A stretch of DNA of 64,000 nt, taken from Escherichia coli. Its GTDB lineage: Bacteria > Pseudomonadota > Gammaproteobacteria > Enterobacterales > Enterobacteriaceae. Below the pieces are notes generated by a model that was given only the letters and a program-made list of their open reading frames with translations, made no database searches and was not told the DNA's origin. A program made the position numbers and the translations under genes. The stretch is taken from the NCBI RefSeq assembly GCF_003334815.1, contig NZ_QOWO01000010.1; one strand, 5' to 3'. Of this stretch, positions 19,354-33,838 are shown piece after piece (positions within the stretch are counted from its first letter, which is position 1; every line of letters begins with the position of its first letter).

Positions 19354-20607
19354 GTGAGCCGTACTACAACTGTTGATGGCGCTCCGGCAAGCGACACTGA
19401 CAAGCAAAGCATTTCTCAGCCAAATCAATTTATTAAACGCGGTACGCCGCAATTTATGCGCGTCACCCTGGCGCTGTTCTCTGCCGGACTGGCAACATTT
19501 GCACTTCTCTATTGTGTGCAGCCTATCCTTCCGGTGCTTTCGCAGGAGTTTGGCTTAACCCCCGCGAACAGTAGTATTTCACTGTCCATTTCCACGGCGA
19601 TGTTGGCTATTGGTTTGCTGTTTACTGGCCCGCTATCCGATGCCATTGGTCGCAAACCAGTGATGGTCACGGCGCTACTGTTGGCCTCCATTTGTACGTT
19701 ACTTTCGACAATGATGACCAGCTGGCACGGCATTTTGATTATGCGCGCCTTGATTGGGCTTTCGTTAAGTGGCGTGGCAGCTGTTGGCATGACTTATCTT
19801 AGCGAGGAAATCCATCCCAGTTTCGTGGCCTTTTCAATGGGGTTGTATATCAGCGGCAACTCAATTGGCGGCATGAGCGGACGCTTAATTAGCGGTGTCT
19901 TCACGGACTTTTTCAACTGGCGAATTGCTCTGGCGGCAATCGGTTGTTTCGCGCTGGCCTCGGCGTTGATGTTCTGGAAAATCCTCCCTGAATCACGCCA
20001 TTTTCGCCCGACTTCGCTGCGCCCTAAGACGTTGTTTATCAACTTTCGTCTGCACTGGCGTGACCGGGGATTACCGTTATTGTTCGCAGAAGGCTTTTTG
20101 CTGATGGGGTCGTTCGTCACGCTGTTTAATTACATCGGCTATCGGTTGATGCTCTCCCCCTGGCATGTCAGTCAGGCCGTGGTTGGCTTATTATCGCTGG
20201 CTTATTTGACCGGTACATGGAGCTCACCCAAAGCCGGAACCATGACCACCCGCTATGGGCGTGGTCCAGTGATGTTGTTTTCGACGGGGGTTATGCTGTT
20301 TGGTTTACTGATGACCTTATTCAGCTCGCTGTGGCTGATCTTTGCCGGAATGTTACTCTTCTCAGCAGGATTCTTCGCAGCCCACTCAGTAGCCAGCAGC
20401 TGGATCGGCCCCCGCGCAAAACGCGCTAAAGGCCAGGCCTCCTCGCTGTATCTGTTCAGTTACTATCTGGGGTCGAGTATTGCCGGGACGCTGGGTGGTG
20501 TTTTCTGGCATAACTATGGCTGGAACGGCGTCGGCGCATTTATTGCTCTGATGCTGGTCATTGCTCTGCTGGTCGGGACGCGTTTGCATCGTCGTCTGCA
20601 CGCCTGA
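19354..20607 (+). CDS. ynfM: MFS transporter
   Basis: 417-aa ORF with a GTG start and a 12-TM-like profile. Divergently arranged with the LysR regulator ynfL. Confidence 0.85.
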   Translation: MSRTTTVDGAPASDTDKQSISQPNQFIKRGTPQFMRVTLALFSAGLATFALLYCVQPILPVLSQEFGLTPANSSISLSISTAMLAIGLLFTGPLSDAIGRKPVMVTALLLASICTLLSTMMTSWHGILIMRALIGLSLSGVAAVGMTYLSEEIHPSFVAFSMGLYISGNSIGGMSGRLISGVFTDFFNWRIALAAIGCFALASALMFWKILPESRHFRPTSLRPKTLFINFRLHWRDRGLPLLFAEGFLLMGSFVTLFNYIGYRLMLSPWHVSQAVVGLLSLAYLTGTWSSPKAGTMTTRYGRGPVMLFSTGVMLFGLLMTLFSSLWLIFAGMLLFSAGFFAAHSVASSWIGPRAKRAKGQASSLYLFSYYLGSSIAGTLGGVFWHNYGWNGVGAFIALMLVIALLVGTRLHRRLHA

Positions 20608-20913
20608 AAAATAAGTCCGGACTGCGGTAAATACCCGTCCGGACTTATTGCCAGCTCAAACCAACGTTAATAGCCATCCTAAAATAGACGAAGCGCCAGC
20701 CAATTCCCGCAGCGCGTCTAGCGTCATCAGGATTATAAGTACCCAAATAAACGGATTCATTTTGCTGTGTGTCATTTATTACTGATGCGCAGTTATTCTA
20801 CTGCTTTGTAAGTAGTAAAATAGTTAACCCGATCAAGACTACTATTATTGGTAGCTAAATTTCCCTTAAGTCACAATACGTTATTATCAACGCTGTAATT
20901 TATTCAGCGTTTG

Positions 20914-20927
20914 TACATATCGTTACA
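20914..20927 (+). promoter_or_regulatory. RstA-box match in the asr promoter region
   Basis: TACATATCGTTACA fits the RstA box TACATNTNGTTACA as recalled, about 105 bp upstream of the asr start. An adjacent Pho-box-like element CTGTAATTTATTCAGCG sits at 20893-20909. Confidence 0.5.
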
Positions 20928-21030
20928 CGCTGAAACCAACCACTCACGGAAGTCTGCCATTCCCAGGGATATAGTTATTTCAACGGCCCCGCAGTGGGGT
21001 TAAATGAAAAAACAAATTGAGGGTATGACA

Positions 21031-21339
21031 ATGAAAAAAGTATTAGCTCTGGTTGTTGCCGCTGCTATGGGTCTGTCTTCTGCCGCCTTTGCTGCAGAGA
21101 CTACGACCACACCTGCTCCGACTGCGACGACCACCAAAGCAGCGCCGGCGAAAACTACACATCATAAAAAACAGCATAAAGCAGCACCTGCCCAGAAAGC
21201 GCAGGCGGCTAAAAAGCATCATAAAAATACGAAAGCTGAACAGAAAGCCCCTGAACAAAAAGCGCAGGCAGCGAAGAAACACGCCAAGAAACACAGCCAT
21301 CAGCAACCGGCAAAACCTGCTGCACAACCCGCAGCGTAA
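21031..21339 (+). CDS. asr: Acid shock protein (periplasmic, Lys/Ala/His-rich)
   Basis: ORF 21004..21339 trimmed to the ATG at 21031 ([21 protein letters not shown], 102 aa). Signal peptide and internal KAQAAKKH repeats. Confidence 0.85.
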
Positions 21340-21431
21340 GTTTTCAACAGTAATGCTGGCGCGCCCCCTCGCGCCTGAAAATTACGGTGCTAAGCGGGTA
21401 ACGTTTAGCACCGCCTTTAGCGGAGGGTAGT

Positions 21432-21515
21432 ATGGTGGGCCGTTATCGCTTTGAGTTCATTCTGATCATCCTTATTTTATGCGCACTGATTGCCGCCCGT
21501 TTTTATCTTTCCTGA
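21432..21515 (+). CDS. ydgU: Small hydrophobic protein (27 aa)
   Basis: ATG at 21432 preceded by a GGAGGG RBS with a 5-nt spacer. Translates to MVGRYRFEFILIILILCALIAARFYLS, then TGA at 21513-21515. Too short for the ORF track; matches the position and sequence of E. coli ydgU as recalled. Confidence 0.5.
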   Translation: MVGRYRFEFILIILILCALIAARFYLS

Positions 21516-21614
21516 TTGTAGTTATCTGATTTTACTCCCACTTTCATCCCGTCCCGTCTATAGTATTTATGAGGGTTTGCTTTTAATAATCATAATTACC
21601 CACCAGAGTGTGAT

Positions 21615-31685: not shown

Positions 31686-31813
31686 CTTTTTACCTTAACA
31701 CTTCCATAACAAGTCATCAGTAGAATACCTGATGAAAACTTGTTTAGAAACGATTGATAGTAAGTAAAAACAGCGCGGTGTATTGTGACGTTTTTATATC
31801 TACCGTGAATGTT

Positions 31814-32536: not shown

Positions 32537-33838
32537 ATGAAAAAACTGTTTATCCAGTTTTACCTGTTATTGTTTGTCTGCTTCCTTGTGATGTCTCTGC
32601 TGGTTGGGCTGGTGTACAAATTTACCGCCGAACGCGCGGGCAAACAGTCGCTGGATGATTTGATGAACAGTTCGCTGTATCTGATGCGCAGCGAATTGCG
32701 TGAGATCCCCCCACACGACTGGGGTAAAACTCTGAAAGAGATGGATTTAAATCTCTCTTTCGATCTGCGTGTCGAGCCACTGAGTAAATACCATCTTGAT
32801 GATATTTCCATGCACCGACTGCGTGGCGGCGAAATTGTCGCCCTGGACGATCAGTACACGTTTTTGCAGCGTATCCCGCGCAGCCACTACGTGCTGGCAG
32901 TTGGTCCTGTTCCTTATCTTTATTATCTCCATCAGATGCGATTGCTGGATATCGCCCTGATCGCTTTTATTGCTATTTCCCTCGCCTTTCCGGTGTTTAT
33001 CTGGATGCGTCCGCACTGGCAGGATATGTTAAAACTGGAAGCAGCGGCGCAACGATTTGGCGATGGGCATCTCAATGAACGTATCCACTTTGATGAGGGT
33101 TCGAGCTTTGAACGACTTGGCGTCGCATTTAACCAGATGGCGGACAATATCAACGCCTTAATTGCCAGCAAAAAACAGCTTATTGACGGTATCGCTCACG
33201 AACTGCGAACACCGTTAGTGCGCCTGCGTTATCGACTGGAGATGAGCGATAACCTGAGCGCCGCCGAATCCCAGGCGTTGAATCGTGATATCAGTCAACT
33301 TGAAGCTTTAATTGAAGAGCTGCTGACTTATGCCCGACTCGATCGCCCACAAAACGAGCTTCATCTTAGCGAACCAGACCTGCCGTTGTGGCTGTCAACG
33401 CATCTGGCAGATATTCAGGCAGTAACGCCCGATAAAACGGTACGGATAAAAACGCTCGTGCAAGGCCATTATGCGGCGTTGGATATGCGCTTAATGGAGC
33501 GCGTGCTGGATAATTTGCTCAATAACGCCCTGCGGTACTGCCATTCAACGGTTGAAACAAGCCTGCTACTGTCGGGGAATAGAGCGACATTAATTGTTGA
33601 GGATGATGGCCCAGGGATTGCCCCAGAAAACCGCGAACATATCTTTGAACCTTTTGTTCGCCTCGATCCCAGCCGGGATCGCTCAACCGGCGGCTGCGGG
33701 CTGGGGCTGGCAATTGTCCACTCTATAGCACTGGCAATGGGCGGTACGGTTAATTGTGACACCAGCGAACTGGGTGGTGCCCGCTTCTCGTTTAGCTGGC
33801 CGTTATGGCATAACATCCCGCAATTTACCTCTGCCTGA
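32537..33838 (+). CDS. rstB: Two-component sensor histidine kinase
   Basis: 433-aa ORF with two transmembrane segments, a HAMP domain, an H-box (HELRTPL) and an ATPase domain. Starts 4 bp after rstA. Confidence 0.9.
   Translation: MKKLFIQFYLLLFVCFLVMSLLVGLVYKFTAERAGKQSLDDLMNSSLYLMRSELREIPPHDWGKTLKEMDLNLSFDLRVEPLSKYHLDDISMHRLRGGEIVALDDQYTFLQRIPRSHYVLAVGPVPYLYYLHQMRLLDIALIAFIAISLAFPVFIWMRPHWQDMLKLEAAAQRFGDGHLNERIHFDEGSSFERLGVAFNQMADNINALIASKKQLIDGIAHELRTPLVRLRYRLEMSDNLSAAESQALNRDISQLEALIEELLTYARLDRPQNELHLSEPDLPLWLSTHLADIQAVTPDKTVRIKTLVQGHYAALDMRLMERVLDNLLNNALRYCHSTVETSLLLSGNRATLIVEDDGPGIAPENREHIFEPFVRLDPSRDRSTGGCGLGLAIVHSIALAMGGTVNCDTSELGGARFSFSWPLWHNIPQFTSA

Follow-up and report, generated by a model that had tools for sequence, protein, structure and literature searches.

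The characterised RstA operator of the asr-ydgU promoter of Escherichia coli and a neighbouring Pho-box-like stretch that behaves like background

How does the RstA box upstream of the acid-shock gene asr compare with the sites that have already been described? The closest described system is the RstA box of the Escherichia coli asr promoter itself (Ogasawara 2007), which has the same locus, the same 14 bases and the same regulator pair as the site considered here, with no difference between the two. The RstA consensus, TACATNTNGTTACA, comes from genomic SELEX (Ogasawara 2007, as quoted in PMC4117788), and tandem TACA half-sites have been described as a feature of RstA boxes (PMC4117788, PMC6824119). 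The asr promoter of E. coli has the canonical TACA repeat and that of K. pneumoniae, a species absent from our own set of compared promoters, has an imperfect TACA/TACT repeat (PMC4117788). That RstA binds this promoter and activates it in vitro and in vivo, and that the promoter depends on PhoQP, is known from the literature. The promoter is shifted by RstA in EMSA, and no binding is left once the box has been deleted or scrambled (PMC11135836); a further RstA EMSA on the same promoter has been reported together with RNA-seq data in which asr is down-regulated in an rstA deletion strain (PMC6824119). In DRaCALA, Pasr is bound by purified RstA, which also activates it when transcribed in vitro with sigma-70, and the induction of Pasr at pH 5 needs rstA, as judged from a reporter in an rstA deletion (PMC13425233). 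In low Mg2+, the activity of the asr-ydgU promoter is PhoQ-dependent (PMC11429745). The asr RstA box is a textbook-level site that has already been used in synthetic pH sensors, and its recognition in another E. coli sequence has little discovery value in itself. A related system is the RstA/OmpR site of the csgD promoter, which is likewise a TACA-type tandem bound by an OmpR-family regulator and is RstA-activated at acid pH (PMC13425233, PMC11135836). The csgD site is shared with OmpR, whereas no OmpR involvement has been reported for asr; moreover, unlike the csgD site, the asr box has next to it, on the downstream side, an invariant block of 25 bp to which no factor has been assigned.

The window, by which we mean the whole 64-kb stretch of DNA that was analysed, is E. 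coli chromosome and is nearly identical to K-12 MG1655 at the asr locus. The two differ by two bases over a 3-kb stretch and not at all in the promoter itself, and a coordinate in MG1655 is the window coordinate plus 1,650,345. An 801-bp query around the asr promoter was matched in 5,423 of 5,426 complete E. coli genomes, in many of them at 100%. The local gene order is ynfM, an ORF of the KPN_01571 family, asr, ydgU/samT and ydgD, and thirteen annotated genes (mdtI to ydgC) lie between ydgD and rstA. The genes concerned are as follows.

19354-20607, + strand: ynfM, the first gene of the local order
20656-20775, - strand: a 39-aa ORF of the KPN_01571 family (NCBIfam NF033695, 63 bits against a cut-off of 35)
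21031-21339, + strand: asr, acid-shock periplasmic protein of 102 aa (NCBIfam NF033636 equivalog; RefSeq annotation)
21432-21515, + strand: ydgU/samT, 27-aa membrane peptide, co-transcribed with asr (translation, annotation, PMC13425233, PMC11429745)
31814-32533, + strand: rstA, response regulator (NCBIfam NF007977 equivalog; annotation)
32537-33838, + strand: rstB, sensor histidine kinase (NCBIfam NF007898 equivalog; annotation)

The identity of the target and of its regulators is secure: Asr scored 102 bits against the cut-off of 50 of the NCBIfam acid_shock_Asr equivalog, and RstA (485 bits against 330) and RstB (833 bits against 478) lay far above the cut-offs of theirs. The KPN_01571-family ORF, which lies between ynfM and asr and is divergent from asr, is annotated by PGAP in many E. 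coli genomes and does not appear in the RefSeq annotation of MG1655. Upstream of the start codon of asr we distinguish the following elements.

20893-20909, + strand: Pho-box-like element CTGTAATTTATTCAGCG, which has a single half-site of Pho type and is, in our judgement, no functional PhoB site
20905-20927, + strand: the RstA site as published (-77 to -55), position -55 being the last base of the box
20914-20927, + strand: RstA box TACATATCGTTACA, tandem TACA half-sites, exact consensus match
20928-20952, + strand: nearly invariant 25-bp block, cgccGa.ACCAA.cactcACgGAA in the footprint of 55 sequences, with no assigned factor
20943-20960, + strand: the published Pho box (-39 to -22), CTCACGGAAGTCTGCCAT, which overlaps the -35 region (position from PMC9026648)
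20970-20975, + strand: -10 hexamer TATAGT, invariant in 55/55 sequences, in agreement with the spacer and the A at -17 and -13 given in PMC9026648
20982, + strand: probable transcription start of asr-ydgU, equal to MG1655 1,671,327, from the published numbering and the coordinate offset
20985-21001, + strand: hairpin GGCCCC-GCAGU-GGGGUU at the 5' end of the transcript, conserved in the footprint

An earlier note on this DNA, made from its letters alone, had proposed an RstA box at 20914-20927, and here it was borne out: TACATATCGTTACA fits the consensus TACATNTNGTTACA with no mismatch. This is the only exact match in the 64 kb, where 0.0076 would be expected at uniform composition, and none of 100 dinucleotide-preserving shuffles of the window contained an exact match. 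When up to two mismatches were allowed, the window had six matches against 4.2 expected, so that only the exact site stands out. The half-sites, TACA at 20914-20917 and TACA at 20924-20927, form a direct repeat of 10 bp from start to start. The note had put its two elements 105-140 bp upstream of asr, which is also correct: counted back from the start codon at 21031, the RstA box occupies 104-117 bp and the second element 122-138 bp. The position of the box in the window agrees with the published -77 to -55. The RstA site at 20914-20927 is thus a previously known and characterised one, and the reading of it restates published work; what we add is a footprint over 54 other species, which tells only which core has been retained and which positions are free.

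In the published numbering, the RstA site occupies -77 to -55 and the Pho box -39 to -22, and a 9-bp spacer, with A at -17 and -13, precedes the -10 element (PMC9026648). We placed this numbering on the window by means of the wild-type promoter sequence in Table S6 of PMC9026648, and with +1 at 20982 all the published promoter numbers were mutually consistent. From this secondary source (PMC9026648) and the offset between the window and K-12, we infer that transcription starts at 20982. The centre of the RstA box would then lie at about -61.5, a distance compatible with an activator, and the position of the box would resemble class-I activator geometry. A sigma-70 consensus scan of 20560-21560 returned no promoter, and no -35-like hexamer was recognisable there. 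This result fits an activator-dependent promoter that has no match to the -35 consensus and is not evidence against a promoter. The hairpin at 20985-21001 begins 3 nt past the probable start and is almost invariant across genera. Neither it nor any other part of 20600-21600 matched a family in an Rfam scan, and the folding energy of the 5'-UTR hairpin was not unusual (z-score -0.46); it may be an mRNA-stabilising 5' hairpin.

Which parts of this promoter have been retained in evolution? With YnfM as an anchor, we collected 80 loci from different species of Enterobacteriaceae, in 55 of which asr was found downstream. For the 54 loci with a complete Asr N-terminus, the 230 bp upstream of the start codon were aligned with the window, giving 55 sequences. 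None of the 55 asr promoters lacked the pattern GTACA-N4-GTTACA, and its distance to the start codon was 116-120 bp throughout. Conservation sets in abruptly at 20912, and there is none upstream of this position among the 55 sequences. Within the box, the 4-nt spacer is variable among the orthologues, many of which also have another base than T at consensus positions 5 and 7 (e.g., TACAAACGGTTACA); this lack of conservation implies that the SELEX consensus is stricter than what evolution has retained. On the 3' side of the box, near-invariant sequence (20928-20952) is followed by variable sequence (20953-20964), the TATAGT hexamer, the hairpin at 20985-21001 and the ribosome-binding site. On the other side, many genera have a GC-rich, terminator-like hairpin, belonging to the preceding gene, directly against the RstA box (loci L007-L081), which marks the box as the place where the conserved promoter begins. 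In most genera other than Escherichia, ynfM and asr are 1.7-2.8 kb apart, with other DNA between them.

The block at 20928-20952 is more strictly conserved in the 55 Enterobacteriaceae asr promoters than the spacer of the RstA box. Of the published Pho box it takes in just the half that is less Pho-like, and it contains weak (A/T)ACC and TCAC motifs with 10-11-bp phasing. One might consider that this block is a second operator abutting the -35 region, occupied by a second RstA dimer, by another member of the OmpR family or by a factor of another kind. We regard this idea, which comes from the pattern of conservation, as tentative and rather doubtful. If it were true, such an operator could confer acid specificity and could explain the old and disputed gel-shift data on PhoB.

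The Pho box, the operator of PhoB, consists of two CTGTCAT repeats that are 11 bp apart and overlaps the -35 region. The earlier note had described a Pho-box-like element immediately upstream of the RstA box. Its two strings, TACATATCGTTACA and CTGTAATTTATTCAGCG, are indeed found at 20914-20927 and 20893-20909, but the resemblance of the second to a Pho box does not stand. The first half of CTGTAATTTATTCAGCG, CTGTAAT, agrees with the Pho repeat at six of seven positions and the second, TTCAGCG, agrees with CTGTCAC at one of seven, and the whole has seven mismatches to the 18-nt consensus CTGTCATAWAWCTGTCAY. Matches to CTGTCATAWAWCTGTCAY that are equally good or better occur at 515 of the 127,966 positions of the window on both strands, so about two are expected in every 250 bp; no match to the strict Pho consensus with three or fewer mismatches was found in the whole window. 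We also derived a PhoB weight matrix from the 53 PhoB sites in Table 1 of a ChIP-seq study (PMC10294691). In leave-one-out scoring, the lowest of these sites had 6.0 bits and the highest 23.3, the median being 13.8 and the 10th percentile 9.4. The element at 20893-20909 scored -5.8 bits, which ranks 4,963rd among the 127,966 positions and lies below all 53 ChIP-seq sites, that is, at the level of background. Shifting the register within the intergenic region gave 6.6 and 6.2 bits at best, values that about 70-90 window positions equal. Among the orthologues, the best PhoB score in the 45 bp that precede the RstA box had a median of -2.9 bits, and no PhoB site of at least 9.4 bits was found anywhere in the orthologue promoters. 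The published Pho box at 20943-20960 is a different sequence, 50 bp downstream of the element in question. With six mismatches to the Pho consensus, CTCACGGAAGTCTGCCAT is matched or surpassed at 128 window positions, and its score on the matrix is -3.8 bits, likewise under all 53 ChIP-seq sites; the orthologue median in its register is -16 bits.

If 20893-20909 were a functional Pho box, PhoB and RstA would sit side by side and co-activate asr. Such an arrangement could draw on the 6/7 match of CTGTAAT to CTGTCAT and on the AT-rich spacer that follows it, as in a Pho box, as well as on the retention of a half-site (TGTAAT, TGTCAT or CGTCAT) at this place in five of six sequences of the Escherichia lineage. 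The shifted register at 20883-20900, with 6.2 bits, would just enter the range of real sites at its lowest end, and asr has been assigned to the pho regulon in older literature. Nevertheless, the second repeat is missing, the score in register is at background and the shifted registers are nothing rare in the window. Column identity at 20893-20909 is 10-50% across the orthologues, and the element is unconserved past E. coli proper, even within Escherichia; in the many genera with a terminator-like hairpin at the RstA box, there is no room for it, and their promoters hold no PhoB site of 9.4 bits or more elsewhere. Moreover, its centre lies at about -81, upstream of the RstA box, whereas Pho boxes act over the -35 region. 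A 129-bp acid-responsive part of the asr promoter gave a pH 5 to pH 7 response ratio of 1.95 on a reporter plasmid (PMC9026648); this part starts at 20902, so that the element lies mostly outside it and its only Pho-like half-site is missing from a promoter that still responds to acid. No PhoB occupancy of 20893-20909 has been reported, the Pho box published for asr is at 20943-20960, and the parts of the PhoB study that deal with ChIP-seq and RNA-seq under phosphate limitation are negative at asr (PMC10294691). We consider a functional Pho box at 20893-20909 to be extremely improbable. Could the same stretch instead belong, on the left side, to an inverted repeat peculiar to E. coli that brackets the RstA box and modulates the binding of RstA or attracts some other factor? 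The RstA box does lie between the arms of a perfect 8-nt inverted repeat, with TTCAGCGT at 20903-20910 and ACGCTGAA at 20927-20934, a second one of 7 nt is present at the promoter, and a third copy of the repeat, AACGCTG (ACGCTG), lies upstream at 20889-20895. The published RstA site of -77 to -55 also reaches over the CAGCG of the left arm. However, by our estimate for a 256-bp region with spacings of up to 60 bp, about 0.2 perfect 8-nt and 0.9 perfect 7-nt repeats are expected by chance, which is close to what is seen. The left arm at 20903-20910 occurs in E. coli proper and one close relative only, being absent in E. albertii, E. whittamii, cryptic-clade E. coli and all the other genera in the alignment, and it is split by IS1 at 20905-20913 in natural isolates. 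In E. coli 26561 (615-1391 of the matched locus, L083), IS1 lies in a 9-bp target duplication, CAGCGTTTG, of 20905-20913. The duplication ends one base upstream of the RstA box; the insertion leaves the box and the promoter intact and displaces all that lies upstream, the 20893-20909 element included, by about 0.77 kb. Three other top matches also carry IS1 somewhere inside the same 801-bp query interval. A role for this repeat in RstA binding or recruitment is hence quite unlikely, if less so than the Pho box just discussed, and we rejected the inverted repeats as a distinct element, taking them to be due to chance or specific to the lineage.

A different proposal concerns the published Pho box, through which PhoB would regulate asr directly from 20943-20960, in place of a -35 element, RstA and PhoB being alternative activators. 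A direct role of PhoB through -39 to -22 is stated in PMC9026648 and PMC4117788, which cite Suziedeliene 1999 and Ogasawara 2007. The position over the -35 region is the canonical geometry of a Pho box, and the second half, CTGCCAT, matches the Pho repeat at six of seven positions. Against this, the six mismatches and the 128 equal or better positions leave little to set the sequence apart in the window, its score is lower than each of the 53 ChIP-seq sites, and the Pho-like half CTGCCAT is the poorly conserved one, only the half that is not Pho-like being conserved, in keeping with the low orthologue median. In the parts of the ChIP-seq study that concern phosphate limitation, no PhoB peak is reported upstream of asr, asr expression is not PhoB-dependent in RNA-seq, and the authors call asr an unlikely PhoB target (PMC10294691). 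Because the condition described in these passages is phosphate limitation, with no mention of acid, PhoB binding at asr that is specific to acid is possible. On balance, direct regulation through the published box seems unlikely to us, though it is a more credible proposal than either of those for 20893-20909. As far as those parts of the study go, the matrix scores and the footprint give independent, sequence-level support to its conclusion that asr is probably not a direct target of PhoB.

We therefore hold with high confidence that TACATATCGTTACA is the operator, already characterised, through which RstA acts on the sigma-70 promoter of asr-ydgU(samT), and that 20893-20909 is not a PhoB site. 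The latter stretch is a chance half-site match in lineage-specific, AT-rich flanking DNA, and the earlier reading of it is to be corrected accordingly, since the flagged stretch is not the Pho box that was published and its behaviour is that of background. On this reading, mild acid or low Mg2+ causes PhoQ-PhoP to raise the expression of rstAB, and RstA is phosphorylated. A dimer of RstA then binds the two TACA half-sites, 10 bp apart and centred about 61.5 bp upstream of the probable start, and the bound RstA activates a promoter that has a good -10 element (TATAGT) and no recognisable -35.

The earlier note had also pointed out that rstA and rstB are encoded about 11 kb away and had seen in this a local relationship between regulator and target. 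The distance is accurate, as 10.9 kb separate the RstA box from the start of rstA on its downstream side, and rstAB and asr are indeed linked as regulator and target. The proximity is not needed for this link, however, because RstA is diffusible and acts in trans, and its other published target, csgD, lies outside the window; the 11-kb spacing is a matter of synteny rather than of mechanism. Upstream of rstA, at 31730-31757, the hexamers TGATGA, TGTTTA and CGATTG resemble a PhoP box with 11-bp spacing. They lie 57-84 bp before the start codon of rstA, which fits the published PhoP control of rstAB. We do not claim a PhoP box here, as the pattern occurs at chance frequency, with 21 matches in the window against 15 expected. 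At the other end of the circuit, the YdgU/SamT peptide has been reported to bind RstB and to exert negative feedback on the RstAB system that activates its own promoter (PMC13425233).
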